From contig NZ_FQZO01000002.1 of assembly GCF_900142075.1 (NCBI RefSeq), positions 67,738 to 99,737 on the forward strand: 32,000 bases of DNA. Reading direction: 5' to 3'. This DNA is from Clostridium amylolyticum. Its GTDB lineage: Bacteria > Bacillota > Clostridia > Clostridiales > Clostridiaceae. The translations under genes were made by a program, and so were the position numbers. The notes under the pieces were generated by a model that was given only the letters and a program-made list of their open reading frames with translations, ran no database searches and was not told the DNA's origin. Below are positions 7,768 through 26,190 of this stretch, in pieces; the first letter of the stretch is position 1, and the number at the start of each line of letters is the position of its first letter.

Positions 7768-9696
7768 CTATCTCACTTGGCTTCCAGAAGGTAAATCACC
7801 AGGATTTACAGCATATAACACTGAATCATCATCAGTAGCAGCTGCCAGTATCATCCCTTGAGATAATTCTCCTCTTAATTTTACAGGTTTTAAGTTAGCC
7901 ACTAACACTACATTTTTCCCCACTAACTCTTCAGGCTTATAGTACTGAGCTATACCTGAAACTACCTGTCTCTCTTCTCCACCTAAATCCACTTTAAGCT
8001 TTAATAGTTTTTTTGCTCCTTTAACTGGTTCACAGCTTATTACCTTCACCACTCTTAGATCTATTTTGTCAAAATCATCTATGGTTATTTCTTCTTTTAT
8101 TGGCTGCATAGGAGCTTTTTCTTCTTTAGTCCTCTGGCTTAAAGCTTCAAATTCCTTTATCTTTGCTTCTAAATCTATCCTTGGGAAAAGAGTTTCTCCC
8201 CTCTTAACCTTCTTACCTGCAGAAGTGCCATCAAAGGCAGATAATGTATCCCAAGAAGTTAACTCACTATTAATTTGTTCATTTATCTTCTCGCTGGTTA
8301 CTGGCAGGAATGCTGAAACCAGTACAGATGTAAATCTTAAAGATTCAATAAGATTATAAAGCACTGTTCCTAATCTTTCCTTCTTGCTGTCATCCTTAGC
8401 AAGGATCCATGGTGTAGTTTCATCTATATATTTATTTGCTCTTCCTACTAAGTCCCAAATTGCATCTAAAGCTTCAGGGATTTTCAGTTTATCCATAGCA
8501 GCTTCTACTTTAAGAGGTGTTTCTAAAGCAAGCTTTATAAGCTCGTCATCAATAGCTTCCTTGGCTGTAGGAGCTGGAATCACTCCATCAAAGTATTTTT
8601 CTACCATGGTTACACTTCTGGATAAAAGGTTTCCTAAATCATTGGCTAGGTCTGAATTTATCTTTTTAATAAATAATTCATTGGTAAATAATCCATCAGA
8701 ACCAAAAGGTATTTCTCTTAAAAGATAATATCTTACTGCATCCACACCAAAGTGATTAACTAGGATTACAGGGTCTACTACATTACCTTTGGACTTTGAC
8801 ATCTTGCCCCCATCCACTAGCAGCCAACCATGACCAAATACCTGTTTTGGTAATGGAAGGTCTAAAGCCATTAGCATAATTGGCCAATAAATGGTATGAA
8901 ATCTTAATATATCTTTTCCTATTAAATGAACATCTGCTGGCCAATATTTTTTATAAAGTTCAGTATCATCACTGCCATAACCAAGGGCTGTAATGTAGTT
9001 AGATAATGCATCTATCCATACATATATAACGTGACTTTCATCAAAAGTAACGGGTATACCCCAGTTAAAGCTGGTTCTAGAAACGCATAAATCTTGAAGT
9101 CCTGGCTTTAGGAAATTGTTTAGCATTTCATTTCTTCTAGATTCAGGCTGAATAAACTCTGGGTGATTTTCTATATGCTCTATAAGCCTAGGAGCATATT
9201 TGCTCATCTTAAAGAAATAAGCTTCTTCCTTAGCTTTTTCCACTGGTCTTCCACAATCTGGGCACTTGCTATCCACTAGTTGTGTTTCAGTCCAAAAGGA
9301 TTCACAAGGTGTGCAGTACCAACCTTCATAGGAACTTTTATATATGTCTCCCTGTGCATACAGCTTCTTAAATATATCCTGTACTGTTTTAATGTGATAG
9401 TCATCAGTAGTTCTTATGAATTTATCATAGCTGATATTCATAAGCTTCCAAAGATCTTTAATACCAGCCACTATTTCATCCACATAAGCTTTTGGTGTTA
9501 CGCCTTTTTCTTCAGCTATCCTCTGTATTTTTTGTCCATGCTCGTCGGTACCAGTAAGGAACATTACATCGTAACCTTTTAACCTTTTAAATCTAGCCAT
9601 AGCATCTGCTGCTACAGTGGTATAGGTATTACCTATATGAAGATTTGCTGATGGGTAATAAATGGGTGTGGTAATATAATAAGTTTTTTTACACAT
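7768..9696 (-). CDS. metG: Methionine--tRNA ligase with C-terminal tRNA-binding (Trbp111/EMAP-like) domain
   Basis: YYPSANLHIGN (HIGH) and KMSKSKGN (KMSKS) motifs, plus a CPDC zinc knuckle. I place the start at ATG 9696 (MCKKTYYITTP) with AGGAGGAG RBS. The 36 extra N-terminal residues in the ORF track read through the T-box terminator. Confidence 0.95.
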   Translation of the reverse strand: MCKKTYYITTPIYYPSANLHIGNTYTTVAADAMARFKRLKGYDVMFLTGTDEHGQKIQRIAEEKGVTPKAYVDEIVAGIKDLWKLMNISYDKFIRTTDDYHIKTVQDIFKKLYAQGDIYKSSYEGWYCTPCESFWTETQLVDSKCPDCGRPVEKAKEEAYFFKMSKYAPRLIEHIENHPEFIQPESRRNEMLNNFLKPGLQDLCVSRTSFNWGIPVTFDESHVIYVWIDALSNYITALGYGSDDTELYKKYWPADVHLIGKDILRFHTIYWPIMLMALDLPLPKQVFGHGWLLVDGGKMSKSKGNVVDPVILVNHFGVDAVRYYLLREIPFGSDGLFTNELFIKKINSDLANDLGNLLSRSVTMVEKYFDGVIPAPTAKEAIDDELIKLALETPLKVEAAMDKLKIPEALDAIWDLVGRANKYIDETTPWILAKDDSKKERLGTVLYNLIESLRFTSVLVSAFLPVTSEKINEQINSELTSWDTLSAFDGTSAGKKVKRGETLFPRIDLEAKIKEFEALSQRTKEEKAPMQPIKEEITIDDFDKIDLRVVKVISCEPVKGAKKLLKLKVDLGGEERQVVSGIAQYYKPEELVGKNVVLVANLKPVKLRGELSQGMILAAATDDDSVLYAVNPGDLPSGSQVR

Positions 9697-9722
9697 TTTA
9701 TCTCCTCCTAATTTATGCTGAA

Positions 9723-10005
9723 AATTAAAAAAGCCTCTATACGGAAATATTCCCGTATAGAGGCGTATTATTCGCGTTACCACTCTATTTTTCATCTTTT
9801 TCACAAAAGACGACTCATTAAGTGACTCCGCCAGAAATATCTAGCTTTTATCACCTTGCAATATAACGGTTGCTCCCGTATTTTCCTAACCATATTAAGG
9901 CTCAGAAAATCTGCTCCAAGACCATGTTCATAAAGCTTCTTGACTCCGGCTTTCACCTTCCCCGGATCTCTTTTAGACACTCCACTTTACTACTCTTCTT
10001 TTCAA
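9723..10005 (-). promoter_or_regulatory. T-box leader (Met specifier) controlling metG
   Basis: Minus-strand RNA has AGAGAGUAG-like stem I start (AAGAAGAGUAGUAAAG), a GGUGAAAGCCGG distal element and AUG codons in the specifier region (UUUAUGAACAUGG). The T-box sequence is AGAGUGGUAACGCG (9773-9786). It is followed by terminator GCCUCUAUACGG-loop-CCGUAUAGAGGC plus UUUUUU (9723-9764). The T-box 3' half can pair with the terminator 5' arm (CGCCUCU) as an antiterminator. Confidence 0.85.
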
Positions 10006-10025
10006 AACATTTTAATTATAATATC

Positions 10026-12102: not shown

Positions 12103-12251
12103 ATCAAGTGATTCTTAGCTTCAGATGCAATTCGCTTAAAAGAAATACTTACTCCATCTGAAGTTTAAAGGAACTTATCCAGGAGCTTAGCACCCCTTAT
12201 TTCACTACTTAAAGAAGTAGGAGCATTAAGGGCGGTTAGCTATAGGATAAA
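12103..12251 (-). ncRNA. Copy 1 of a ~150-nt two-hairpin repeat element, forming the 5' leader of mscL
   Basis: The minus-strand sense reads TTTATCC-T-ATAGCTAACCGCCC...GGGGTGCTAAGCTCCTGGATAAGTTC...CTTCAGATG...CATCTGAAGCTAAGAATCACTTGAT. It is homologous over its full length to 24043-24190 (+). It ends 17 nt before the mscL ATG and begins about 25 nt after a predicted transcription start. Confidence 0.6.
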
Positions 12252-12285
12252 TTTTATCCATCGTATCTAAATAAGTTTCACTAAA

Positions 12286-12314
12286 ATTATAGTGCCACTA
12301 GTATTGTAATACAA
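12286..12314 (-). promoter_or_regulatory. Candidate promoter for the leader element and mscL
   Basis: On the minus strand, TTGTAT (12314-12309), a 17-nt spacer, then TATAAT (12291-12286). A second candidate is TTGCAA (12332-12327), 18 nt, then TACAAT (12308-12303). Confidence 0.5.
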
Positions 12315-12336
12315 CCTAATCATTACTTGCAACCTT

Positions 12337-12413
12337 TTATTACTTACTACTTATTACTTATTACTTATTACCTATTATTTCTTACCTCTTACCTCTTACT
12401 TATTATTTATCAT
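12337..12413. repeat. Imperfect heptanucleotide tandem repeat, about 11 units of TTATTAC (GTAATAA on the minus strand)
   Basis: Reading in 7-nt phase from 12337 gives TTATTAC TTACTAC TTATTAC TTATTAC TTATTAC CTATTAT TTCTTAC CTCTTAC CTCTTAC TTATTAT TTATCAT. The tract covers the last codons and stop of the 232-aa ORF and runs up to the mscL promoter region. Confidence 0.8.
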
Positions 12414-13094
12414 TACATCTTTATGTTCCATATTTTTGTAAACACTTAAATCTTTAGGTGTATATAATGACCTTTGAATTACTTTACCTCTCTTAAATTC
12501 ATATCTATATTCTATTTCCTTTTCATCATTAAAAATTACTATAGTATACTCTGGATATTCTATTATACTATGAATATTATCGCTACAGCCCTTATCCTTC
12601 AAATAAGAAATCACTTGGTTCTTCAGTACTTGCCCTTGGGAGAAGCATAAACCTACATTACAAAAATATATGCAAAAAATGAAAGATAAAAAAGCTATAC
12701 TATAAGCTAATTGAAGCTTTTTAATTGCTCCCCTTTTAAAATCTATAATGATTCTATTCATAATAACTATAAGAAAGATGCCAATCAATGGGAAGGGGCT
12801 TATTTTCACTTCTGAATAATTATTAAACACATGGCTCCATATAAAAATCAGTAGAGATATGGAGGTAGCTATGTATAGTGAACTCTTTATATATTTTTTA
12901 TGATATAAATATATAACTACTACACCTGCAAAAAGCATTGCCAAGGTGGCACTATAAGCGATGATAAGATCAATCTTATAGTATATGCATTGCTTCAGTC
13001 CAAAGTATAAGAACAAAGCTGTAACAACATTAGCTGATATATATATTATTTTGTTTACTAGCTCATTTTTATTTTTATCCATATAAAGCACCAC
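12396..13094 (-). CDS. Hypothetical membrane protein (about 5 TM segments plus a small C-terminal soluble domain, possibly DUF3139-like)
   Basis: Hydrophobic N-terminal two thirds. The C-terminal segment YLKDKGCSDNIHSIIEYPEYTIVIFNDEKEIEYRYEF resembles the small domain of DUF3139-type proteins. The start is ambiguous (GTG 13094 or ATG 13082). Confidence 0.6.
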   Translation of the reverse strand: MVLYMDKNKNELVNKIIYISANVVTALFLYFGLKQCIYYKIDLIIAYSATLAMLFAGVVVIYLYHKKYIKSSLYIATSISLLIFIWSHVFNNYSEVKISPFPLIGIFLIVIMNRIIIDFKRGAIKKLQLAYSIAFLSFIFCIYFCNVGLCFSQGQVLKNQVISYLKDKGCSDNIHSIIEYPEYTIVIFNDEKEIEYRYEFKRGKVIQRSLYTPKDLSVYKNMEHKDVMINNK

Positions 13095-13296
13095 TCTTAT
13101 TTTTTAATTATATTTTAACTTTCTTTACATATTATGTAAATATTTTCAATAGTTATACATTAAATTATACGAAAATGTTTTCATTAAAAGCCAACATTTC
13201 ATAAATAAAATATATAAATTTATATTTTATTAAAACATAATTCATATCTTATATGCTTTAAATAAACTATAATTTATTATAAAGGGAGGTTATATT

Positions 13297-14286
13297 TTGA
13301 TTAGAGTAATGTATCATTCAAAATACTTAAATAAAGTTGAAATAAAAAATTATGAAAGCACTGATAATTTTCTTAAAGAATGCCATAACATCCAATGTAA
13401 TATTATGTGGATAGATATAGACTATTGTTCAAATTCAAAGGAGGATGACTTTAAAGATATAATAAATAAGTTTTTCGATTATTCTAACTCATCTATTGCT
13501 AGAGAGCTTCCAGCACGTCATTCTTCAGTAGAAAAATATTCTGACTTCTATAGCATAGACATGCTTATTCTTAAAGATAGTAACCTAAAAAAACATATGC
13601 ATTGGCTAAAAAAACATTTTATCATTAATAAAAACATAATAATTTCCCTAGGCAGTGAGCATTCTAAAATATTTGAAGAAATATGGAAAAATCTTTCTAC
13701 TCACCCTACAGCCCTTAAAGGTAACACTGATGGAATCTTGTACTTAATCCTAGATTACATATGTGATGAATATTTTGCCGCTCTAGAAGATTTGGAAAGC
13801 ATGGTAGAAGAAATTGAGGTAGCCTTAATAGATGGAAACACTAATGAACTTCAAGATAAAATACTGAAACTTAGAAAAGAAATATTAAAATTCAAGCGGG
13901 TGGTTAGTTCCCTACGTACCGTTACTTATTCTCTTATAAGTTATGATTACGATGTTATAGACGAAGAAAATACAAACTATATTAAAACTGTTCATGACAA
14001 TACCTTCAAAATTTATGAGGCTCTAGAATCTGAACTAGACACCTTAGCTACAGATTTAAATTTATACAATTCTAAAATGTCCAATAAAATGAATGAAACC
14101 ATGGAGTTTTTAACTGTTATTACTACTATTATGGCTCCTCTTACCCTAATTGCAGGTATATATGGAATGAATTTTAAATTTATGCCTGAAATAGAGTCTA
14201 AATTTGCTTATCCTATAACTCTTGTAGTTATGTTAATATTGGTAATACTTCAAGTTAGATATTTTAAAAAGAAAAATTGGCTCTAA
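13297..14286 (+). CDS. corA: CorA-family divalent-cation (Mg/Co) channel
   Basis: C-terminal two TM segments with the canonical YGMNFKFMPE (GMN plus MPEL-like) motif. The WIDID motif is in the N-terminal domain. TTG start with AGGGAGG RBS. Confidence 0.85.
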   Translation: MIRVMYHSKYLNKVEIKNYESTDNFLKECHNIQCNIMWIDIDYCSNSKEDDFKDIINKFFDYSNSSIARELPARHSSVEKYSDFYSIDMLILKDSNLKKHMHWLKKHFIINKNIIISLGSEHSKIFEEIWKNLSTHPTALKGNTDGILYLILDYICDEYFAALEDLESMVEEIEVALIDGNTNELQDKILKLRKEILKFKRVVSSLRTVTYSLISYDYDVIDEENTNYIKTVHDNTFKIYEALESELDTLATDLNLYNSKMSNKMNETMEFLTVITTIMAPLTLIAGIYGMNFKFMPEIESKFAYPITLVVMLILVILQVRYFKKKNWL

Positions 14287-14287
14287 T

Positions 14288-14333
14288 AAAAATATAGGAG
14301 AAAATGCTATGTATGCTTTTCCCCTATATTTTA
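14288..14333 (+). terminator. Possible terminator hairpin after corA
   Basis: ATAGGAGAAAATGC...GCTTTTCCCCTAT imperfect hairpin, followed by ATTTTAT. The T-run is weak and merges with the 5' end of repeat copy 3. Confidence 0.4.
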
Positions 14334-14448
14334 TCCCATAGCTAACCGCTCCTAATACCCTCACTTTTTCAAGTAGCATGATAATGAGCGCTAAGCTCCT
14401 GGATAAGTTCTTCTAAATATATGCTTCAATCTATATTTCTAAGAGTTC
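14330..14448 (+). ncRNA. Copy 3 of the two-hairpin repeat element (distal part of hairpin 2 replaced or deleted)
   Basis: TTTATCC-C-ATAGCTAACCGCTCCTAATACCCTCACT...GAGCGCTAAGCTCCTGGATAAGTTCTTCTAA is near-identical to copy 2. A shorter hairpin follows (AAATATA...TATATTT), then CTAAGAGTTC. The last 18 nt overlap the stop and final codons of the convergent SNF2 gene. Confidence 0.55.
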
Positions 14449-17400
14449 TAAAAGTTCACCTTCTGTAAAGCTACTTATAAATCCCCCATGCTTCTCTTCT
14501 GAAAGCACTTTATTTATTATTTCTCTCTTTTTGTGCTGAAGGGTATATATCTTTTCTTCTATAGTTCCCTTGGTAATTAACCTTATTACCTCTACAGAAT
14601 TTTTTTGTCCTAATCTATGAGCTCTATCTGTTGCTTGATCTTCCACAGCAGGATTCCACCATGGGTCAAAGTGTATTACTATATCCGCTGAGGTGAGGTT
14701 AAGTCCGGTACCACCAGCTTTTAATGATATAAGAAATACCATGGGGCTATTACTTATATTAAAGTTATTTACTACTTTTACTCTCTCTTCTGAGGTCATG
14801 CTACCATCTAAATAACAATAATCTATGTTGTTGCTATCCAATTTAAAGGCTATATTTTTTAGTACTGAGGTGAATTGAGAAAACACTAAAACCTTATGAT
14901 TTTCTTCCAATGCCTGTTGTAATATCTCTAAAAGAGCTGAAATCTTTGCGCTTTCACCGTTATAATTTTGTATAAAAGAAGAAGGATCGCAACATATCTG
15001 TCTCAGTCTAGTTAATACTCCCAATATTTTTATCCTATTTTTTTCAAAACCCTGAACATCTATTTCTTTTCTTATTTTTTTGCTAGCTGCAGCAAGATAA
15101 GCCGTATAGATTTCCTTTTGCTCCTTTGTAAGGTCTAAGGATATTTTATGTTGTATTTTATTAGGGAGTTCTGATGCCACATGTATTTTTAACCTTCTTA
15201 AAATAAAAGGTTTTATTAAAGAATTAAGCTTACTTAAAGCATCTGCATTTACATTTTTTGATATGGGTCCCTGAAACCTTGAAATGAATGTATTATAATT
15301 CATTAAATATCCTGGCATAATAAAATCAAAAATAGACCAAAGCTCTGACAATGAATTTTCTATAGGAGTTCCTGTAAGAGCAAACCGTATTCGGCTTTTA
15401 ATGGCCTTTGTGCAGGAAGCATTTTGAGAATATGGGTTTTTAATATTCTGAGCTTCATCCAGTATAAAACAATAAAATCCATAATCTTTGTATCTATCAG
15501 CATCTTTTCTCAGCAATGCGTAAGATGTTATTACTACATCATACTCTTTAATGCTATTTATTAATTCTTCTCTATCCTCTGGATTACCTTGAATAATAAG
15601 CACCTTAAGCTCTGGAGCAAATCTTTCCAACTCCTCTTTCCAATTGTAAAGTAAAGAGGTTGGAGCAACTATAAGGGAAGTCCCTTTCTCCTTTTCTGAT
15701 AGTAAAAAAGCTATAGATTGAAGGGTTTTACCCAGTCCCATCTCATCTGCTAATACTCCTCCAAAGCCCATATGAGACAAGTATTTAAGCCACTTATAAC
15801 CAGATACTTGGTAGTCTCTAAGTATGCCTTTCAGATTATCTGGAACAGAAGCATCCAAGGTTTTAAAGCTTCTAATTTCTTTTAAGGAATTTATTAAGTC
15901 TTCATTTATATTTACATTTTCAATGTTATCAATTTGCTTTATTTGCTCTGCAGCAAAAGCTTTATAGAGTGGAAGCTCTATACTTTCTTCCATTAATTGT
16001 TCTTTTTTGATACCAATATTATCAATGAACTCTACTAGCTTTTGAAGTTCTTTATTCTCGAGGTCAATAAAATTACCATTTCTTAATTTAAAGTATTTTT
16101 TATTGTGTTTTATGGCTTTAAATAAAGTAGCTATGTCTTTTTTATTTATGTCCTTTATATAAAAATCTACTTTAAAAAGGTTGTTATTATTTATACTAAG
16201 GTTAGTTTGTATGCTGGTATAATCATATAGCTTAAGGGTTTTAAAACCTTCAGAGTAATAAACCTCACAGATTTCTTGAAGCTCCAGCACTCCCTTTTTA
16301 AGAAAATATACTAAAGATTCATCTCCTTGTAGATAAAAATTATCCTTACCCTTTTTAAAATTAAGTTCCATGAGAACATTTTCTATATTTTTTTCTTTTA
16401 GTTTATCTCTAAGTATTAACTCATTTTTATTGTTTGATGTATTATCAGGTATTTGTATGTCTACATCACCATAGGTATATACAAGGTTACATTTTATCTT
16501 GCTGCCTTCTTTATCTATATAAGCCTTGGCTTTGAAATCTTCTATAATATATGAGTCTTTAAGTTCATTACATATATCTATATTTTTACTTATAGATTTT
16601 AATAGAGGCAGCATATAAGAGGCATATCTTTCCCCTTCACTTTGCCTAATTTTAAACATAGGCTCCTGTTCATAGCCCAAGGCTTCTTCTAAAAGCAGAT
16701 AAAGCTTAATCTGCTCTTTAGAAGGTTTATATAAAGCTTCTTTATAATAAAAAATACTTTTTTCATCATTTAAGCTTATAGGTAGGTCACCCTTAGGCAA
16801 TACTACCAAATCCTCTTTATCCCTATGTATGCAAAAATCCAAAGGCATATCCTTCTCGTAATAGTTTACCTCTCCTATTTCTTTGGTGTTTATTGTAATA
16901 TTAATATCACTATTAGAAGCTGCCTTGAAAAGCCTCTCCACTTGACGAGATGGTATATAAAGCTTTCTTCCATCTAAGAGCTTAATTATCCCTCTATCAT
17001 AGTTTAAGCTTAAACGACTAATTTTATTGAATTCATATATATCTTTAAATAAAGCTATTAAATCTTTATGCTCTTCTTTAAATTCATGCTGTTTAGAGTT
17101 ATACTGAAAGGCTTTAGATAATTTAAATGGAATATTATCTTCCATAGCTTCTAAAAACCTTTCTATATCTTTTATAATATAAAGCCTATTTACCCCTACC
17201 TTTACTTCAACATGACTTTTTATTCTTCCGGTATTATTATAGTGATAATTTATTTTAACATTAAGCTTTTGCTTCTTTTCATGGATGTTGTTTAACATAT
17301 TATCTATGTTATCTAGGAACTTTGAACCATTAAAAGCGCTCCTCTCTTCCATTACAAGATTACTCTTTTCCTTATAATATTTAAACAGCGTTGAAGCTAT

Positions 17401-17691
17401 ATGCTTACATATACCTTTTCTTCTATAACTTTCATTGAAATATAAACAATCACAATGAAACCTTGTAAATCCACTATTATCATTAAATCCTATCTGAACA
17501 TTATACACAGCTTCAGTAAATGCAGAATGAACCCAGGTATCAATACCATACCTATTTACCATAGAATTTTCCGTAGAGTAAATCTGCACCACAAAATCTT
17601 CTACTAAATTCTTATTATAATATTCTAAACCTTTTTCGTAGATTTCATTATCTGTGTAATTGTGGATTATATTCTCATCGTAAATCATCAT
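14431..17691 (-). CDS. SNF2-family DEAD/H helicase with N-terminal SWIM zinc finger (YwqA-like)
   Basis: SWIM CxC...CxH motif (CDCLYFNESYRRKGICKH). Helicase motifs are LADEMGLGKT (I), ILDEAQNIKN (II), LTGTPIENS (III) and QATDRAHRLGQ (VI). Confidence 0.9.
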   Translation of the reverse strand: MMIYDENIIHNYTDNEIYEKGLEYYNKNLVEDFVVQIYSTENSMVNRYGIDTWVHSAFTEAVYNVQIGFNDNSGFTRFHCDCLYFNESYRRKGICKHIASTLFKYYKEKSNLVMEERSAFNGSKFLDNIDNMLNNIHEKKQKLNVKINYHYNNTGRIKSHVEVKVGVNRLYIIKDIERFLEAMEDNIPFKLSKAFQYNSKQHEFKEEHKDLIALFKDIYEFNKISRLSLNYDRGIIKLLDGRKLYIPSRQVERLFKAASNSDINITINTKEIGEVNYYEKDMPLDFCIHRDKEDLVVLPKGDLPISLNDEKSIFYYKEALYKPSKEQIKLYLLLEEALGYEQEPMFKIRQSEGERYASYMLPLLKSISKNIDICNELKDSYIIEDFKAKAYIDKEGSKIKCNLVYTYGDVDIQIPDNTSNNKNELILRDKLKEKNIENVLMELNFKKGKDNFYLQGDESLVYFLKKGVLELQEICEVYYSEGFKTLKLYDYTSIQTNLSINNNNLFKVDFYIKDINKKDIATLFKAIKHNKKYFKLRNGNFIDLENKELQKLVEFIDNIGIKKEQLMEESIELPLYKAFAAEQIKQIDNIENVNINEDLINSLKEIRSFKTLDASVPDNLKGILRDYQVSGYKWLKYLSHMGFGGVLADEMGLGKTLQSIAFLLSEKEKGTSLIVAPTSLLYNWKEELERFAPELKVLIIQGNPEDREELINSIKEYDVVITSYALLRKDADRYKDYGFYCFILDEAQNIKNPYSQNASCTKAIKSRIRFALTGTPIENSLSELWSIFDFIMPGYLMNYNTFISRFQGPISKNVNADALSKLNSLIKPFILRRLKIHVASELPNKIQHKISLDLTKEQKEIYTAYLAAASKKIRKEIDVQGFEKNRIKILGVLTRLRQICCDPSSFIQNYNGESAKISALLEILQQALEENHKVLVFSQFTSVLKNIAFKLDSNNIDYCYLDGSMTSEERVKVVNNFNISNSPMVFLISLKAGGTGLNLTSADIVIHFDPWWNPAVEDQATDRAHRLGQKNSVEVIRLITKGTIEEKIYTLQHKKREIINKVLSEEKHGGFISSFTEGELLELLEI

Positions 17692-17826
17692 TATTCCCTC
17701 TATTTACATTAATTGATAAATTATTAACAATATAATTATAACCCATAATACATAAAAACAAAAGAGCATAAACTTTAAAAAGAAAAGCCTATACTCTTAT
17801 AGTTCTAATAATATGCACTTTTAAAA

Positions 17827-18243
17827 TTAACTCTTCATCTTAAATTCATATCCGCACTTTTTACAGGTTACTGTAATTTTACCTTTGCCTCTTGGGACTC
17901 TAAGCTTTTGCCCGCAACGCTGACATTTAAATATTTTAAAGTTCTTTTTCTCATTAAAATAATCCTTAACTTTGTTAGCTGAACCTTTAATACCACTGTG
18001 AAAGGAAGGTTTGCTTTTATTATAAGCATTTCCTGCTTTAAAGGTTCTATTAAGCCAATTTTGAAGTTTTAATGCTTCGTTACCCCTAGATACAAAGTCT
18101 TTAGATAAAGCTCTCCAAAGGGCAAACCCTATTAAAATTACGCCTATGGAAATGGTATATCTCCATAAAAGAAGAAGCATTCCTATCAATAACATCAGTG
18201 CAGAAAGCTTGTCAAAGCCATATCTCCCCTTAAACAAATTCAT
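17827..18243 (-). CDS. Membrane-anchored zinc-ribbon protein
   Basis: N-terminal hydrophobic hairpin and C-terminal CQRCG...CKKCG zinc ribbon. Strong RBS (GGGGGGAG). Confidence 0.7.
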   Translation of the reverse strand: MNLFKGRYGFDKLSALMLLIGMLLLLWRYTISIGVILIGFALWRALSKDFVSRGNEALKLQNWLNRTFKAGNAYNKSKPSFHSGIKGSANKVKDYFNEKKNFKIFKCQRCGQKLRVPRGKGKITVTCKKCGYEFKMKS

Positions 18244-18332
18244 ATTGCTCCCCCCTTAATTTTGAAGATAATATTCATGGCAGTATCCCTTTATAATCTT
18301 AAAATATACTATAAAGCATTCCTGCACTACAT

Positions 18333-19574
18333 TTACTTTTTCATAAAAGCTTCTATATCTTCTACGGTTTTTATCATATCCTTAGTTAAATTAATACATC
18401 CATCTGCTGTTACTAAAACATCATCTTCTATTCTAACACCAATTTTCTCTTCTTCTATATATATACCTGGCTCTACAGTCCAAACCATTCCTGGTTGAAA
18501 CTTAATGTCTCTATCACCCACATCGTGAGTATCTAATCCTAAGCTGTGACCTACGCTATGCCAGTAATATTTTATAACATCTTTCTTGTCTTCTATAAGT
18601 CCAAGATTGACGCATTCCTCTGCTACCCATTCTGTAGACTGATGATTTAGCTCTAAATAGCTTACTCCAGGCTTAATCGCTTCAATTACCTTTTCATTTA
18701 CTCTCAAAACAGCATTATAAACTTCTTTCTGTCTTTCAGTAAATTTGCCATTGGCTGGGAAGGTCCTTGAAATATCTGCATTGTAATAGTTTAATTGAGC
18801 TCCCAAATCAAAGAGTATCAGATCATTATCTTGAATTTCACAGTTATTGTCTACATAGTGTAATATAGTGGCATTTACTCCAGAAGCAGCAATGGTCTTA
18901 AAGGCGTAGTCATTAACTCCTTTAGATTTACATACAAAGTCGAAGTAAGCTTCCAGCTCACATTCTTTCATGCCAGGTTTGGCATTTTTCATTAAATTTT
19001 CAACGCCTTCAATGGTAATTTCTATAGCCTTTTTAATTTCTTCCACTTCTTCTTCAGATTTAACCATTCTCAAAGCTGCAATCATGTTATAAGCATTTTT
19101 AACCTTTAATTGAGGATACTTATTCTTTAACTCTCTTGCATATTTTTCTGTATAGGTTTCTATACTGTTATAGCTGTCTTTTTCAAGATCCATGTACATC
19201 ACATTAATATCCTTATTGAAGATATAGCTATGAATGGTAGAATTCAAAGAGTCTGAATAAGCTACATCCTTAATTCCGGAAAGTTCTTGCGCTTCTTCTT
19301 TTGTTATTGTTCTTCCTACCCATTTTTCAAGTTCAGGGTTAGGTGCTTTTATGAACAATTTCTCTTCATATTCGCCCTTCATTTTTGTCATAAAAAGAAC
19401 CACATTCTCTTCATCTATACCTGTAAGATAATAAAAATTTCTATTAGGAGTAAACTTATATTGCTCGTCAGCAGATTTTTTCACTGCTCTGCCAGAAAAT
19501 ATCATTACTATAGAATTTTCTCCAATACGATTTAATAACTTTTTTCTGTTTTTATCAAAAACCTCTTTGTTCAT
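18333..19574 (-). CDS. Xaa-Pro aminopeptidase (M24B family)
   Basis: N-terminal AMP_N-like region. The pita-bread metal ligand context is present (DLGAQLNYYNADISRTF, HSVGHSLGLDTHD, VEPGIY, RIEDDV). Confidence 0.88.
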   Translation of the reverse strand: MNKEVFDKNRKKLLNRIGENSIVMIFSGRAVKKSADEQYKFTPNRNFYYLTGIDEENVVLFMTKMKGEYEEKLFIKAPNPELEKWVGRTITKEEAQELSGIKDVAYSDSLNSTIHSYIFNKDINVMYMDLEKDSYNSIETYTEKYARELKNKYPQLKVKNAYNMIAALRMVKSEEEVEEIKKAIEITIEGVENLMKNAKPGMKECELEAYFDFVCKSKGVNDYAFKTIAASGVNATILHYVDNNCEIQDNDLILFDLGAQLNYYNADISRTFPANGKFTERQKEVYNAVLRVNEKVIEAIKPGVSYLELNHQSTEWVAEECVNLGLIEDKKDVIKYYWHSVGHSLGLDTHDVGDRDIKFQPGMVWTVEPGIYIEEEKIGVRIEDDVLVTADGCINLTKDMIKTVEDIEAFMKK

Positions 19575-19661
19575 ACTTTCACCTCTATTTATTAACTAAT
19601 TCTCTTTAAAATATTATATCACTGAAAGCTTTAATTATCCATAATCCAATGGTATCAGCAA

Positions 19662-20099
19662 TTACTCCAAAGCAATAAGCTTGATTTTTAATACCAGACC
19701 TTCTTTGGATAAAATCTCCATAAGCTCTTTAATATCAATTCTTAAATTTGATATATCAAAGGTAATGGTAACATTAGCAGCATTATTTATAGGTACATCT
19801 TGGCTTATAGTAAGTATATTACCATCATTTGCTGCTATGGTATCTAAAACCCTGGAAAGGGCTCCAGCTTCATGGGAAATTAGCAATGCCAAAGTAGCTT
19901 TCTGGCTCTGCACACCTTCAGAAAGCGGAAAAACTTTATCCTTATACTTGTAATATGCACTTCTGCTTATACCAACAGTTTTTACACCTTCAGTAATATC
20001 CTTTACCTTTCCAGCATGAAGCATTTTTTTAACTTCCAATACTTTTTTTATTACATCTTGTAAAATGTCTCCATCAACTATATAAAATTTATCTTCCAT
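19662..20099 (-). CDS. ACT-domain protein, UPF0735/PheB-like
   Basis: 145 aa with an N-terminal HTH-like segment (GISRSAYYKYKD) and a C-terminal ACT fold (LALLISHEAGALSRVLDTIA). Confidence 0.8.
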   Translation of the reverse strand: MEDKFYIVDGDILQDVIKKVLEVKKMLHAGKVKDITEGVKTVGISRSAYYKYKDKVFPLSEGVQSQKATLALLISHEAGALSRVLDTIAANDGNILTISQDVPINNAANVTITFDISNLRIDIKELMEILSKEGLVLKIKLIALE

Positions 20100-20208
20100 A
20101 GCACTCTCATCCTTTAAGCATAATATGTCAATTTTTTAGGGTAAAAGTAAATGGTACCCTGAATTAATTATATACTCCAGGATACCATAATGGAAATAAT
20201 GATATGAA

Positions 20209-21165
20209 TTATTTTATCTGTAATTTTATTTTTAGTTTATCCAGCATATCTTTTGACATGGATGGAAGATCATATTTAGCATTAAAGCCCCATTCTTCTC
20301 TAGCTGCAGTGCAATCTATGGAATTTGGCCAAGAGTCTGCAATAGCTTGTCTTATTGGGTCTACATCATAGCTCATCTTAAACTCTGGAATATGCTTCTT
20401 TATTTCCTCTGCTATTTGAGATGGTTCAAAACTCATAGCAGTTATATTAAATGCGTTTCTATGCTTTAGTTTTGATGGGTCTGCTTCTAAAAGTGTCACT
20501 ATAGCATTTAGTGCATCAGGCATATACATCATATCCATGTATGTACCTTCACCAATAAAAGAAGTATATTTTCCTTCTTGAAGGGCTTTATAGTAAATAT
20601 CCACCGCGTAATCTGTAGTTCCGCCTCCTGGAGGGGCTACATAGGAAATAAGTCCTGGGAACCTAACTCCTCTTGTATCTACGCCAAATTTTTTGAAGTA
20701 GTAATCGCAAAGAAGCTCTCCAGATACCTTGGTTACTCCATACATAGTGCCTGGTCTCTGTATGGTATCTTGAGGTGTATTATCTTTAGGGGTATCACAT
20801 CCAAAAGCGCCTATAGAGCTTGGTGTAAAGAACTTACAGTTAAGCTCTCTTGCTACTTCTAAGGCATTAAAAAGTCCTCCCATATTTATCTGCCAAGCTA
20901 ACACAGGTTTTGCCTCTGCTACAGCAGAAAGTAAAGCTGCCAAGTGTATTATGGTATCTACATTATGTTTTTTAGCTACTTCTGCCATTTTATTTGCATC
21001 TAATACATCTAGAGCTTCAAAAGGTCCTCCATTTACTACTTCATTATTTTCTGGAACCTTAATATCTGTGGCAATAACATTGCTGTCGCCATAGATTTTT
21101 CTCATATGAGTTACTAATTCAGAACCTATTTGACCAAGTGAACCTGTAACAAGTATTTTTTTCAT
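20209..21165 (-). CDS. tdh: L-threonine 3-dehydrogenase of the SDR / UDP-glucose-4-epimerase-like type
   Basis: [17 protein letters not shown] Rossmann start and YGVTK catalytic YxxxK. Its position immediately downstream of kbl supports the TDH assignment. ATG at 21165 has GGGGGA RBS. The ORF-track start 21195 adds 10 unsupported residues. Confidence 0.78.
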
Positions 21166-21253
21166 TTTAATCCCCCATTTATTAGGCATCCACAAAAAAA
21201 TAACTAGTGAGTCTACTGGTATATTTGACTATTTATTTTTTTACAATGCCTTA

Positions 21254-22447
21254 TTATTTTATAACATTAAGTTCTTTTCCCACTTTTTCATATATAGCTA
21301 ATGCATTATCTAACATTTCCTTAGTATGAGCAGCTGTTGGCATATTTCTAACCCTTCCTGTGCCTAGAGGTACTGTAGGGAATACTATGGACTTAGCATA
21401 AACCCCTTCTTCTATAAGTCTCTTACTAAACTCTTGAGTAAGCTTTTCATCTCCAATAATACAAGGAGTTATAGGGGTCTCACTTTTACCTATATTGAAG
21501 CCAAGCTTTTTAAGTCCAGCTTTAAGATAATTTCCATTATCCCAAAGTCTGTCGTGAAGCTCTGTGCTTTCTGTCATTATTCTTAACGCTTCTATGCAGG
21601 CTCCTGCAGCGGATGGTGTTAAAGAAGTAGAGAATAAGAATGGTCTTGCTCTAACTTTTAACCAATCTATTAAATCCTGAGATCCTGCTACATATCCACC
21701 TACTACTCCAATGGCTTTTGATAGTGTACCTATTTGGAAGTCAATCTTATGGGATAGTCCAAAGTGCTTAACAGTTCCTGCTCCTTTTCCCATTACTCCT
21801 GAACCATGAGCATCATCTATATAGGTTATAAGATCAAGCTCTTCAGCTACTTTAACCATGCCCGGAAGGTCTACTACATCCCCATCCATGGAAAAAACTC
21901 CATCTGAAATAACCATTAATTTATTATATAAACCGCTTTCTCTAGCTGCTTTAGCTTTTTCTCTAAGATCATTCATATCATTGTGATTGTATCTAATTAC
22001 CTTTGCTCCAGATAATCTACATCCATCTATAATGGAGGCATGATTAAGTTCATCAGATAATATGGCATCCTTTTTATTCATTACAGCTTGAATAGCTCCA
22101 GCATTACAATTAAAGCCTGATTGGAAAGCTATAGCTGCTTCAGTATGCTTAAATTCTGCTAATTTTCTTTCTAATTCATTATGGATTTCTAAAGTACCAT
22201 TTATTGTTCTAACTGCTCCTGCGCCTACACCATACACTTCAGTGGCTTCGATGGAGGCTCTTTTCATTCTTTCATCACTAGCAAGTCCTAAATAGTTATT
22301 TGAAGAAAGGTTTATTAGGTCTTTTCCTTTAATTTTTATTATTGGTCCATTAGCACCTTGAAGCACATTTATCTCATTGTATAGCCCCTTGCTCTTAAGA
22401 TCGTCTAAGTTTTCTTTTAAAAATTTTTCTAAAGCTTTACTTCCCAT
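21254..22447 (-). CDS. kbl: 2-amino-3-ketobutyrate CoA ligase (glycine C-acetyltransferase)
   Basis: Alpha-oxoamine synthase family, with [21 protein letters not shown] and the PLP lysine context GTLSKA. ATG at 22447 has AAGGAG upstream. Confidence 0.9.
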
Positions 22448-22674
22448 TACCTTCACTCCTTAAGTAGTTATATATGTAAAAACAAATTTGTATTTCTGTT
22501 TCTTATTATATTATACCAAACACTATAAAAGCTATCTACAGTTCAATATAATTAAAAAAAATCAAATTTTACTGTTTTTTGCCTTGTAGCTTAAAACGAT
22601 TACATAATGGTGCTATTATCTCTCTTTTTCATAATTTTAAATATTCAGAATATAATTGCATAGATTTACGTTTC

Positions 22675-22701
22675 TATGATACTATCATACTGTGATATAA
22701 T
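22675..22701 (+). promoter_or_regulatory. Extended -10 promoter of the SstT-like gene with an overlapping palindrome
   Basis: TGATATAAT (22693-22701) fits TGnTATAAT. The 7-1-7 palindrome TATGATA-C-TATCATA (22675-22689) sits where a -35 box would be. Confidence 0.4.
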
Positions 22702-22728
22702 ATAAAACTTTTAGGGGGTTGTGTTTTT

Positions 22729-23925
22729 ATGAAAAAAATCGGTCTTATACCTAAGTTAATCGCTGCTATTATCATAGGTATATTGCTAGGTGCTTTTGCT
22801 CCTACATTTGTTGTACAAGTTTTAGCCACCTTTAACCACATCTTTGGAAACTTCTTAGGCTTTGCAATTCCACTGATCATCTTAGGTTTTGTGGTATCAG
22901 GAATTGCAGATTTAGGTGCCGGTGCAGGAAAAATGCTGGGGATAACCACAGTAATAGCTTATGCTTCCACTTTAATAGCTGGGCTATTTGCATATATTGT
23001 ATCTTATAACTTCTTCCCTGCCTTTATTACTAAAACCAGCGAATTAACTAATGCAGTAAACCCTGAAGAAAAGCTACTAGCTTCATTATTTAAACTAGAA
23101 ATGCCTCCACTTATGCCTGTAATGACAGCACTTATTCTTGCATTTTTATTAGGTCTTGGCATAGCATCCCTTAAAGGGAAAAGTGAAGTTCTTTATACCG
23201 CTTCAGTAGAATTTCAAAAGATAATGGAAAAAACTATTTCTAATGTTATTGTTCCACTATTACCTTTTCATATAATGGGTATATTTGCCAACATGACTCA
23301 TGCTGGGGAAGTTGGTAGAGTTCTTTCTGTATTCTGGAAGGTTTTCTTAATAGTAATAGCCATGCATTTAATAATAATATTCTTCCAATTCCTAGTGGCA
23401 TGCACCATAGGTAAAAAGAATCTATTTCAATGCTTAAAAAACCAAATCCCTGGATATCTTACTGCTATAGGGACTCAATCCTCAGCAGCTACCATACCTG
23501 TAAATCTTCAGTGTGCAGAGAAGAATGGTGTGAGCAAAGGCATAAGAGAATTCGTAGTGCCACTATGTGCTACTATACACCTTTCAGGAAGTACCATAAC
23601 CTTAACTGCTTGTGCTATAGCAGTTATGATGCTTAACAATATTCCTTTTACCTTACCTCAAATGATGGGCTTCATAGCTATGCTTGGTGTAACCATGGTA
23701 GCAGCCCCTGGTGTACCTGGTGGTGCAGTTATGGCAGCTCTAGGAATACTTCAAACCATGCTTGGATTTACTGAAGCTCAGCTTGCACTAATGATCGCTT
23801 TATACATCACCCAAGATAGCTTTGGAACAGCATGTAACGTATCCGGCGATAATGCCATAGCCATTATAGTAGACGCTATACAAGGTAAAAACAAGGCTGA
23901 AACTAAAGAAGCAGCAGTAGAGTAA
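22729..23925 (+). CDS. sstT: Serine/threonine:sodium symporter-like transporter (DAACS family, SstT-like)
   Basis: 398-aa polytopic protein with GTQSSAATIPV and the TACNVSGD pattern of dicarboxylate/amino-acid:cation symporters. It is divergent from kbl-tdh. Confidence 0.78.
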   Translation: MKKIGLIPKLIAAIIIGILLGAFAPTFVVQVLATFNHIFGNFLGFAIPLIILGFVVSGIADLGAGAGKMLGITTVIAYASTLIAGLFAYIVSYNFFPAFITKTSELTNAVNPEEKLLASLFKLEMPPLMPVMTALILAFLLGLGIASLKGKSEVLYTASVEFQKIMEKTISNVIVPLLPFHIMGIFANMTHAGEVGRVLSVFWKVFLIVIAMHLIIIFFQFLVACTIGKKNLFQCLKNQIPGYLTAIGTQSSAATIPVNLQCAEKNGVSKGIREFVVPLCATIHLSGSTITLTACAIAVMMLNNIPFTLPQMMGFIAMLGVTMVAAPGVPGGAVMAALGILQTMLGFTEAQLALMIALYITQDSFGTACNVSGDNAIAIIVDAIQGKNKAETKEAAVE

Positions 23926-24001
23926 ATGAATAGTTAATTAGACATAGTATAACTTTACTTAATTAAAAATAATGTAAATAAATTATATACTTAATAACAA
24001 T

Positions 24002-24045
24002 AAAAAAGCATGGATTGAAGTATTAACCACAATCCATGCTTTTTT
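24002..24045. terminator. Bidirectional terminator after the SstT-like gene
   Basis: AAAAAA-GCATGGATTG-loop-CAATCCATGC-TTTTTT (stems 24008-24017 / 24030-24039). Confidence 0.8.
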
Positions 24046-24190
24046 ATCCGATAGCTAACCGCCCCTAATACCCCCACTTCTTTAAGTGCTGGGAAAAGGG
24101 CGCTAAGCTCCTGGATAAGTTCTTCTAAGCTTCAGCTGGAGTAGGTATTCCTTTTTAGCAAACTCCATCTGAAACTAAGAATCACTTGAT
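24043..24190 (+). ncRNA. Copy 2 (full length) of the two-hairpin repeat element
   Basis: TTTATCC-G-ATAGCTAACCGCCCCTAATACCCCCACTTCTTTAAGTGCTGGGAAAAGGGCGCTAAGCTCCTGGATAAGTTCTTCTAAGCTTCAGCTGGAGT...ACTCCATCTGAAACTAAGAATCACTTGAT. It starts in the terminator T-run and ends exactly at the stop codon of the convergent 67-aa gene. Confidence 0.6.
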
Positions 24191-24393
24191 CATATTATCT
24201 CTGACTTTTTCTTCATGTAACCAATCATCCTTTTCCCTTCAGCAACAAGGATGCCCATAACCGCTCCCATGGTCATTCCCAAAGCAGGATGGGAAAATAA
24301 TGCTCCTATTGCTATTCCTGTGGCAGAACCAAAACATATACCCTTTGCTATTAATGTAAATTCTTCATCTTGTACCTTCTTTTTGCTGTCCAT
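24190..24393 (-). CDS. Small (67 aa) glycine-zipper membrane protein
   Basis: Charged N-terminus. Two Gly/Ala-rich hydrophobic stretches (GICFGSATGIAIGALF, ALGMTMGAVMGILVA). Basic C-terminus. Strong RBS AGGGGAG 9 nt before the ATG. Confidence 0.6.
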   Translation of the reverse strand: MDSKKKVQDEEFTLIAKGICFGSATGIAIGALFSHPALGMTMGAVMGILVAEGKRMIGYMKKKSEII

Positions 24394-24620
24394 AATTAAC
24401 CCACTCCCCTTTCCAAGAATCTCTTTTTTACTTTAAATTACATTATATTATTTTCTTTAATTATCCTTTAACTATTAGACGAAACAAAACACAGATTAGT
24501 TTCAATTTTTAAAAATAATTATTTAAATTTAAATTTTAATTCTTACTAATATTATTATCCTATATAAATCTAAAGATATTATTAAGAATTCCTTATATAA
24601 ACATTAAATTTTTACTAAGA

Positions 24621-24662
24621 AAGTATAAGAGAAGGGTTTAGGAGAGGTTAGCTATCGGATGA
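24621..24662 (-). repeat. Copy 4 (decayed or partial 5' part) of the repeat element
   Basis: The minus strand reads TCATCCGATAGCTAACCTCTCCTAAACCCTTCTCTTATAC. Its first 15 nt (ATCCGATAGCTAACC) are identical to 24046-24060 in inverted orientation. The next ~20 nt are similar, and beyond that I cannot align it by eye. It overlaps the last codons and stop of spmB. Confidence 0.4.
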
Positions 24663-25179
24663 AAAACAACCTAACTATGGTAATGGAAGCCAGTATGGCT
24701 GTAAAATCTGCCAACAAGGCAGCCCAAAGGGTATGTCTTATCTTTTTTATGCCTACTGAACCATAATATACAGTTAGTGTATAAAATATGGTTTCTGTAG
24801 TGCCCATTATTATAGAAGCTATAAGTCCTATGATGCTATCAGGTCCATATTCCTTTAATATTTCAGTAAATACTCCTAGCGCTCCACTGCCAGAAAGTGG
24901 CTTTATAATTACCAAGGGCAAAAGTTCTGAAGGAAGCCCTATAAGTTTTGTTATAGGAGAAACACCTTTAGTGAATATATTTAAAGCTCCTGACTCTCTA
25001 AATACTTTTACAGCTATAAGCATAGCAAGAAGATATGGAAATATCCTAAAGCAAACTCCTAATCCCTCTTTGGCTCCTTCCACAAACCATTCATATACCT
25101 TTTTTCCCTTTATCATGCCGTACACAACAATAATTAATATTATTATGGGTATAATGGATTTTAATATATATGAAAACAT
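24652..25179 (-). CDS. spmB: Spore maturation protein B (nucleoside-recognition/Gate-domain membrane protein)
   Basis: 175-aa polytopic protein directly downstream of the spmA-like gene. Typical SpmB size and the LSGSGALGVF motif. Confidence 0.85.
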   Translation of the reverse strand: MFSYILKSIIPIIILIIVVYGMIKGKKVYEWFVEGAKEGLGVCFRIFPYLLAMLIAVKVFRESGALNIFTKGVSPITKLIGLPSELLPLVIIKPLSGSGALGVFTEILKEYGPDSIIGLIASIIMGTTETIFYTLTVYYGSVGIKKIRHTLWAALLADFTAILASITIVRLFFIR

Positions 25180-25945: not shown

Positions 25946-26131
25946 ATGAAAGAAGATATGATGAAACTAGCTCAGCAAGAGATTGAAGAAGCTTTAGAGG
26001 CCGTAGAAACTTTGGAAAATAATATTGATAAAGAAGACTTTTCAAAAGATGAACTAAAAAAGAAATTTATAAAGCTTAACGAAAAGGTTAATGAAATCGA
26101 ATCACTTTTAAAGTCTGAAGGCATAATATAA
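25946..26131 (+). CDS. Small acidic coiled-coil protein, hypothetical
   Basis: 61 aa, heptad-like and charged. AAGGAG RBS 7 nt upstream. A terminator follows immediately. Confidence 0.5.
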   Translation: MKEDMMKLAQQEIEEALEAVETLENNIDKEDFSKDELKKKFIKLNEKVNEIESLLKSEGII

Positions 26132-26178
26132 GACCACCTGGAGATATGTACACATCTATATCTCCAGATGGTCTTTTA
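26131..26178 (+). terminator. Terminator after the 61-aa ORF
   Basis: AGACCACCTGGAGATAT / ATATCTCCAGATGGTCT hairpin (one mismatch), then TTTT. Confidence 0.6.
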
Positions 26179-26190
26179 ATTTGGTAACAT

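Follow-up and report, generated by a model that had tools for sequence, protein, structure and literature searches.

The repeat bcr1 of the Bacillus cereus group is said to be group A of the series bcr1-bcr18, which reportedly goes back to work by Okstad in 2004, Klevan in 2007 and Kristoffersen in 2011. It is about 155 bp long, has TTTAT at each end and forms two independent stem-loops that are maintained by compensatory changes, and its positions vary between strains by a mechanism of mobility that is unexplained (reviews, PMC6199540, PMC3184786, PMC3446304). The flanking TTTAT may be duplicated on insertion (PMC6199540, PMC3184786), bcr1-type repeats are transcribed within untranslated regions (UTRs) in B. 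cereus (PMC3446304), and bcr1 has been reported as specific to the B. cereus group. Among IS200/IS605 elements of Geobacillus, ISGst2 has the transposon-adjacent motif TTTAT and ISGst5 has TTCAT, and the genome of Geobacillus stearothermophilus also carries gene-less PATEs, some of them related, for example, to ISGst1 and ISGst5 (bioRxiv 10.1101/2023.03.14.532601). Here we describe a family of repeats of about 150 nt in a 32,000-nt stretch of Clostridium amylolyticum (contig NZ_FQZO01000002.1, positions 67,738 to 99,737; hereafter the window), which an earlier note, made from the sequence alone, had put forward as a candidate undescribed structured RNA or a repeat like a MITE (miniature inverted-repeat transposable element).

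The copies are precisely gained or lost between sister strains, and the element is almost certainly a mobile non-coding repeat. Very probably the copies are small (~95-150 nt, sometimes larger), non-coding, non-autonomous mobile elements related to bcr1, which may be moved in trans as single strands of DNA. The repeat half of the earlier proposal has therefore held and a dedicated RNA function has not; absence from Rfam holds as well, while "undescribed" applies only in part, since the architecture and termini of bcr1 are published. The finding is a repeat family of a known kind and not a new RNA class. What is new, and the novelty is modest, is that the family extends the bcr1 type far beyond the B. 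cereus group; no description of it was found in the literature searched.

Strain differences, target and fold

Three full copies lie in the window, at 24043-24190 (+) behind an SDF symporter gene, at 12103-12251 (-) in the leader of mscL and at 14330-14453 (+) behind corA (the 24-kb, 12-kb and 14.3-kb copies), together with a decayed fragment of 40 nt at 24627-24666 (-). The 18-mer GCTAAGCTCCTGGATAAG occurs three times in the window, compared with 0.03 occurrences expected by chance, and ATAGCTAACCGC has three exact occurrences and a fourth, with one mismatch, at 24644-24655. R1, a covariance model made from 17 copies of other genomes on a two-hairpin structure drawn by hand, gives 120.8 bits for 24043-24189 (+), 109.3 bits for 12104-12251 (-) and 73.7 bits for 14330-14453 (+). 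Apart from small corrections of coordinates, the repeats lie where the earlier note had placed them. A repeat finder matches 12103-12256 to both 14325-14440 and 24043-24190, and the fragment to the 5' ends of both plus-strand copies. With its filters off the covariance model finds no further copy in the window, nor does it reach the fragment. Read on the strand chosen in that note, the layout is a TTTAT flank, CC-GAU, hairpin 1, a GGATAAG box, hairpin 2, and CAC followed by an element-borne TTTAT or TTGAT.

At the SDF locus the empty site of four aligned sister strains (among L047-L053) reads CATGCTTTTTAT|CATATTATC, whereas the window reads CATGCTTTTTTAT(CCGATAGC...143 nt...CACTTGAT)CATATTATC; at the boundary, CATGCTTTTTAT|CATATT stands against TTTAT, the 143 nt ending in TTGAT, and CATATT. 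The inserted segment, missing in the sister strains, is thus 24048-24190 (+), from CCGATAGC to CACTTGAT. Several more strains lack this copy as judged by an equally short intergenic spacing, and in the sister strains without it the spmB-like protein is identical to that of the window. At the second site, contig L042 of a related strain carries mscL, a 228-aa open reading frame (ORF) and corA without the mscL copy: its empty site reads ...ATATAATTTTTT|TGAAAGGATG... and the window reads ...ATAAAATTTAT(CC...CACTTGAT)TGAAAGGATG.... The same contig retains the 14.3-kb copy at 98% identity, and that copy is missing at the syntenic locus L046. In C. polynesiense and in another relative, the syntenic 21-kb loci are free of copies altogether; the SDF symporter is 92% identical to the C. 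polynesiense protein, and a base-exact empty site was not obtained in that species, where the intergenic regions are too diverged. Because sister strains differ by precise insertions, the family seems to have been active recently in this line of Clostridium.

Insertion of the element takes place directly 3' of a pentamer resembling TTTAT, which is very often the tail of an intrinsic terminator, and the element has neither a target duplication nor terminal inverted repeats, its ends being TTTATCCGATAGC... and ...GTCTACTTTAT by direct reading. In most copies TTTAT both precedes the start and forms the end; on the left, some subfamilies have TTTGC, TTCAT or TTRAC, and on the right TTGAT stands in Clostridium copies and TTTAC in one subfamily. 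The two pentamers often differ within one copy, as in TTTAT/TTGAT (twice in the window) and TTTGC/TTTAT (in a metagenome-assembled genome, MAG, of Bacillaceae), and one metagenome subfamily has a variable TT[A/G/T]AC on the left and a constant TTTAC on the right. Within a subfamily it is the right pentamer that is constant, which means that it travels with the element, and the left one that varies and is most simply read as flanking target. TTGAT stands on the right of both window insertions, while the corresponding empty sites show TTTAT and TTTTT.

On the left, copies are very often flanked by the T tract of a terminator hairpin, at 24008-24047 here and at several loci elsewhere. The gene upstream is co-oriented in 18 of 25 cases, and among copies between co-directional genes sense outnumbers antisense by 13 to 5, a bias that arises because TTTAT is the sense-strand tail of a terminator. 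Some copies lie between divergent genes, so the earlier generalisation that every good copy is downstream of, and co-oriented with, a gene does not survive; the 12-kb copy itself is not simply downstream of a gene, since it sits in the 5' leader of mscL and ends 18 nt upstream of the ATG (12085).

R1 recovers 50 forward-strand copies above ~50 bits in 385 kb, and the alignment of these copies, which come from many genomes, was used for pair statistics. Paired cells amount to 85.9%, double changes occur in 33 of 45 pairs compared with 16.0 +/- 2.1 in shuffles (none of 500 shuffles was as high, and slid controls gave at most 15), and the alignment has a covariation score of 0.189 (shuffles, 0.085). 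The two-hairpin fold is real, and the compensatory changes from which base pairing had been proposed are also right by direct reading, that is, C-G to U-A in the long helix (CCGCCC/GGGCG versus CCGCTC/GAGCG) and U-A to C-G in the apical stem. The closing helix UUAUCC/GGAUAA, which had been part of the same proposal, fares otherwise: in the 50 copies it has one-sided changes and no compensatory change, and its 5' half is probably flanking target DNA. The module 5'-CUAAC/5'-GCUAAG, with A.A and C.C mismatches, is kept in hairpin 1 of almost all copies and, in the long subfamilies of Sporomusa/Clostridium type, recurs in hairpin 2 with unchanged polarity; in the 3' arm of hairpin 2, Bacillaceae-MAG and bcr1-type copies have GAAG or AAAG instead. 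The block GCUAAGCUCCUGGAUAAG is identical between copies of very distant taxa, and the GGATAAG box is identical in nearly every copy.

A search of the window against Rfam 15 at gathering thresholds returned one T-box leader and no structured-RNA family (riboswitch, ribozyme, IS605-orfB motif, omega RNA or other) for the copies, and the best copy, searched at E up to 10, met chance microRNA and small-RNA models far below threshold, in keeping with the earlier note, which had matched the repeat to no riboswitch consensus. The T-box (RF00230, 107.6 bits) lies at 9756-10014 (-), upstream of a methionyl-tRNA-synthetase-like ORF (7768-9804), and no tRNA or tmRNA gene was found in the window.

Copies in the window and their neighbours

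In the 24-kb copy TTTAT at 24043-24047 is the probable flanking target. Hairpin 1 spans 24045-24117 (+), as given by the minimum free energy fold and by pair counts on the 50 copies, and is made up of closing pairs UAUCCG/UGGAUA, AGCU/AGCU, a CGCCC/GGGCG stem and an apical hairpin, with the conserved A.A and C.C mismatches of CUAAC/GCUAAG. The block GCGCTAAGCTCCTGGATAAGTTC (24100-24122, +) is conserved in all three window copies save for one base of the 12-kb copy (GTGCTAAG...), and its 18-mer core is identical in Negativicutes, Peptococcaceae, Clostridia and Bacillaceae-MAG copies. Hairpin 2 spans 24118-24186 (+), UUCUUCUAAGCUUCAG...CUGAAACUAAGAAUCA, with an enlarged apical part (minimum free energy fold, helices 5-7 of the pair count), and the element-borne pentamer TTGAT at 24186-24190 (+), replaced by TTTAT in most other subfamilies, is the same at both window insertions despite their differing targets. 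The SDF symporter gene has a terminator-like hairpin (24008-24047, +; GCATGGATTG...CAATCCATGC, then TTTTTTAT, by direct reading), whose T tract the copy directly abuts, and at the empty sites of sister strains this hairpin is intact, with TTTTTAT after it. Also 3' of the SDF gene, sister strains L047-L053 have an 8-nt duplication (TTAGACAT) that is absent at window positions 23940-23950.

The 12-kb copy has its left TTTAT at 12251-12247 and its right TTGAT at 12107-12103, and the 3' block CTGAARCTAAGAATCACTTGAT is common to it and the 24-kb copy. A promoter-like site, TTGCAA-18-TACAAT at 12303-12332 (-), lies upstream and is identical in L042, and if this site is used the copy would be transcribed within the mscL 5' UTR. 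Between the promoter-like site and the stop of a 232-aa ORF there are about nine tandem heptamers (GTAAGAG/GTAATAA) at 12336-12410 (-), whose units differ in L042.

The 14.3-kb copy, older, sits between corA (13297-14286, +) and an SNF2 helicase gene (14431-17691, -), whose last codons it overlaps. It does not stop at 14448, as first described, and runs at full length to 14453 with a degenerate hairpin 2. The decayed copy, likewise present and placed before at 24621-24662, is the 5' 40 nt of an element (TTTTTCATCCGATAGCTAACCTCTCC...) at the corrected position given above, as indicated by inverted-repeat pairs and alignment, and a Gate-domain (spmB-like) ORF at 24652-25179 (-) takes its final three codons and its TAG stop from this fragment. 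The genes of the window are housekeeping genes only. Farther on, between spmA-like and InhA-like peptidase genes, a 26-nt inverted repeat at 26122-26183 (85% complementary, 10-nt spacer) looks like a terminator.

Occurrence in other taxa and a probable link to bcr1

The 18-mer, used to scan one genome per species, matched 39 loci, of which 32 are true copies and 7 are chance matches in coding DNA of unrelated taxa. The true copies come from Sporomusa aerivorans, S. rhizae, S. acidovorans and a Sporomusaceae MAG, from Peptococcaceae and Peptococcales MAGs and Firmicutes UBA5324, and from a Thermoanaerobacterales MAG, a Clostridiales MAG and a "Bacillaceae" MAG. A metagenome scan added 17 copies, and the total across fetched loci is about 67. 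Genomes titled as B. cereus-group organisms gave no match to the 18-mer in the one-per-species scan. By blastn the window copy has no match in plasmid or phage collections; eight variants searched against plasmids matched only the 73-kb plasmid NZ_CP073654 of C. beijerinckii DSM 791, which has two diverged copies (L043, 22078-22196 (-) and 19604-19722 (+)). One of these is 300 nt downstream of a tyrosine recombinase gene, a proximity that is probably coincidental. Exact-pattern matches in viral contigs were mostly chance matches in coding DNA and were set aside.

The length of a copy is 93-148 nt and reaches 263 nt where loops hold insertions. In short variants (93-95 nt) hairpin 1 is without its apical part, and others have extra hairpins inside loops. 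One metagenome subfamily has 40-130 nt of extra hairpin-forming sequence in the apical loop of one hairpin (1 or 2) or of both (L074 4831-5093; L084 1762-1966; L078 7950-8119), and since the basal parts are conserved in these copies the loops tolerate cargo. The Bacillaceae MAG has tandem arrays with a period of 102 nt and copies at many contig ends; its head-to-tail arrays hold 2-5 units of 102-110 nt (L011 2420-2973; L003 7304-7983; L005 22-243; L009 3973-4189), with a junction pentamer, TTTGC, TATGC or TGTGC, that is specific to each array and thus suggests local duplication rather than repeated insertion. Runs of N in L011, L012 and L016 start inside element copies, consistent with assembly gaps or masking at repeats.

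The family is probably related to bcr1. In reverse complement the B. anthracis bcr1 sequences (supplement of PMC2267715) read TTTAT-CC-CGC-(hairpin 1)-ATAAAAG-TCCGATTG-(GTTCAACTAATAATCAG...CUGATTAAAGTTTCAC)-TTTAT, and the copies directly follow terminators and form tandem junctions of the same kind as those seen here. The Bacillaceae-MAG subfamily links the two families, as its hairpin 1 is that of the present family, down to the exact 18-mer, and its right end is bcr1-like: its last 25 nt are identical to bcr1 at 21 of 25 positions and the 5' arm of hairpin 2 at 15 of 17. With 48.9 bits (E = 6e-8), R1 also finds in a viral contig a complete element of the bcr1 type, which is about 80% identical to B. 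anthracis bcr1. On viral contig IMGVR_UViG_2926488731_000002 (L113 2312-2607, -) two different bcr1-type elements stand in tandem and share one TTTAT, and phages could therefore carry such elements between hosts.

Mechanism, alternatives and comparison with known systems

The lack of terminal inverted repeats, the lack of target duplication and the conserved mismatches point to single-strand transposition by an IS200/IS605-type enzyme. As to its class, a single-strand Y1 HUH transposase of this type is a tentative choice, suggested by the features of the elements and falling somewhat short of an even chance. Its left- and right-end recognition structures would be the two direct-orientation, mismatched hairpins. 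Encoded elsewhere in the genome and acting in trans, it would cleave behind TTTAT on the left and behind TTKAT on the right, and the one strand so excised would be pasted in behind a further TTTAT. The covariation would then reflect selection for foldable hairpins in mobilisation and not an RNA function, and effects on neighbouring genes, such as the leader structure of mscL and the new C-termini or stops of the SNF2 and spmB-like genes, would be by-products of insertion.

Several observations weigh against this account. In agreement with the earlier note, which saw no transposase nearby, no Y1 transposase ORF was found in the window or in the neighbourhoods that make up ~0.99 Mb of copy-bearing loci, and no autonomous parent with these ends, tnpA or tnpB, was found in those loci; the search was made by phmmer with IS608 and IS200 TnpA (query sequences validated against PF01797) on ORFs of at least 70 aa from loci of 0.75 and 0.23 Mb. 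The four window copies have no common orientation, two lying on each strand. Covariation of the GGATAAG box with the left or right pentamer was looked for and not found, which leaves a guide-like pairing role unsupported. The hairpins are ~25-35 pairs long, and those at the ends of IS608 and ISDra2 are much shorter. The opposite strand folds more stably in 29 of 33 copies, by a mean of 5 kcal/mol (Wilcoxon p = 2e-5), the two strands of the 24-kb copy having energies of -47.1 and -60.5 kcal/mol, and hence either strand of the element may be the active one. With 64 G-U cells as against 74 A-C cells, the argument of the earlier note from G-U wobbles to a transcribed sense also falls. As for bcr1, plain sequence comparison is marginal (nhmmer E = 0.5; a single 14-mer with blastn-short), and similarity appears weak outside the termini.

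If the element were a structured RNA that serves the cell as a cis-regulatory leader, 3'-UTR element or small RNA, its copies being paralogous functional genes, this would account for the strong covariation, for the many copies that lie 20-50 nt upstream of a co-oriented start codon, mscL included, and for the orientation bias toward sense copies and co-oriented upstream genes, and transcription of bcr1-type repeats in UTRs of B. cereus (PMC3446304) is in line with it. We nevertheless consider it very improbable, as the bias is accounted for by the terminator target, G-U cells show no excess over A-C cells and the better fold is on the opposite strand, no Rfam family matches, the copies differ in presence between sister strains with identical flanking proteins, and antisense, convergent, divergent, tandem and truncated copies all occur. 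The adjoining genes, moreover, are unrelated: the 104 ORFs that flank copies fall into 149 Pfam families, e.g. ATP synthase, GAPDH, PGK, enolase and radical SAM, and no transposase is among the most frequent families listed for them. Hardly more probable is what was first proposed for bcr1, a classical DDE-transposase MITE that duplicates a 5-bp TTTAT target site. TTTAT-like pentamers do flank both ends of most copies, and duplication on insertion has been raised in the bcr1 literature (PMC6199540, PMC3184786), but terminal inverted repeats are absent, the pentamers differ systematically in subfamilies (TTTAT/TTGAT, TTGAC/TTTAC, TTTGC/TTTAT) with the right one copied along with the element, as at the two window insertions where TTGAT stands against TTTAT and TTTTT in the empty sites, and the conserved mismatches in the hairpins would have no purpose for an enzyme that binds double-stranded ends.

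Somewhat less remote, yet still unlikely, is a repeat of the repetitive extragenic palindromic (REP) or REPIN kind, kept by a domesticated single-copy Y1 enzyme (RAYT) or another host enzyme and having a structural role, e.g. in the stabilisation of mRNA or the binding of a protein. The copies are intergenic, hairpin-forming, numerous and often clustered or in tandem, no linked transposase was found, and GATAGC (TGTAGC in Sporomusa) 5' of hairpin 1 recalls the GTAG tag of REPs (PMC3733652). Against this, the hairpins are direct where those of REPINs are inverted, the unit is 4-5 times the length of a REP, no RAYT-like gene was seen beside any copy, and insertion is bound to the TTTAT target. 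The attC sites of integrons have the core consensus RYYYAAC/GTTRRRY. We give the smallest chance of all to a substrate of a site-specific tyrosine recombinase acting on folded single-stranded DNA, comparable to integron attC or to Xer-dependent integrating elements; imperfect palindromes with conserved mismatches that mark one strand would suit such an enzyme, and on the opposite strand the hairpin 1 arms GCTTAGC...GTTAGCT loosely resemble the attC core, but a unit contains two hairpins, gene cassettes are absent between copies, no integrase lies beside them in the window or the loci scanned, and the copies are scattered singly over housekeeping operons. Readings as an attC-like site, a REPIN, a terminator or a small ORF were considered and dropped.

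Clean empty sites, the lack of target duplication and the TTTAT target provide a testable hypothesis for the movement of bcr1-like elements, namely single-strand HUH transposition. A wider proposal, which we regard as speculative and the less likely outcome, is that bcr1 and the present family form one Bacillota-wide, PATE-like superfamily of gene-less elements of the IS200/IS605 type in which the GCTAAGCTCCTGGATAAG core and CUAAC/GCUAAG would be the recognition code of a putative, possibly domesticated, Y1 HUH enzyme; if true, it would settle the mechanism of bcr1 mobility, unresolved for 20 years. In a bolder version, read-through transcripts comprising hairpin 2 and its flank would act as omega-RNA-like guides of a TnpB that works in trans at sites flanked by TTTAT. 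In genome annotation, such blocks of ~150 nt should be masked as mobile repeats and not taken as riboswitch or small-RNA candidates despite their excellent covariation. Copies break short-read assemblies (Logan short-read contigs of the source sample end inside them), add structure to leaders, as at mscL, and rewrite the 3' ends of genes.

Like REPs and REPINs, the family consists of abundant intergenic imperfect palindromes that occur in clusters and may depend on a Y1 HUH enzyme encoded elsewhere. REPs, however, are 20-40 nt long, REPINs are two REPs in inverted orientation, neither is tied to a TTTAT target, and RAYT genes are flanked by REPs, nothing comparable having been seen for this family. 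The likeness to PATEs is closer in structure: insertion at the 3' side of a fixed pentamer with no target duplication and no terminal inverted repeats, subterminal imperfect hairpins in direct orientation at both ends, an element-borne right-end motif and, as we infer for the present family, mobilisation in trans. Both TTTAT of ISGst2 and TTCAT of ISGst5 are seen as left pentamers in copies of the family. The family differs from PATEs in that no tnpA, tnpB or autonomous parent was found in the loci scanned, its hairpins are much longer, and no covariation between guide and cleavage site was seen.

With bcr1 the family has in common the order TTTAT-CC, hairpin 1, ATAA(A)G box, hairpin 2 and CAC-TTTAT, a length of ~150 nt with no coding capacity and a TTTATCC start, partial and tandem copies, two stem-loops with compensatory changes, and a position that varies between close strains while the flanks are conserved. 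It differs in the sequence of hairpin 1 (AGCUAACCGCCGC...GCGGCGCUAAGCU against GGGCAGUAAGACCCCCACC...GGUGGGGG..CUGCCC), in the TTGAT that ends the window copies, and in its hosts, here Clostridia, Negativicutes, Peptococcaceae and Thermoanaerobacterales. The bcr1-type repeat, published as specific to the B. cereus group, has a sister family in Clostridia, Negativicutes and Peptococcaceae, and it is the weak sequence statistics, the different hairpin 1 and the other hosts that lead us to place this family as a sister within a bcr1-like superfamily rather than as bcr1 itself.

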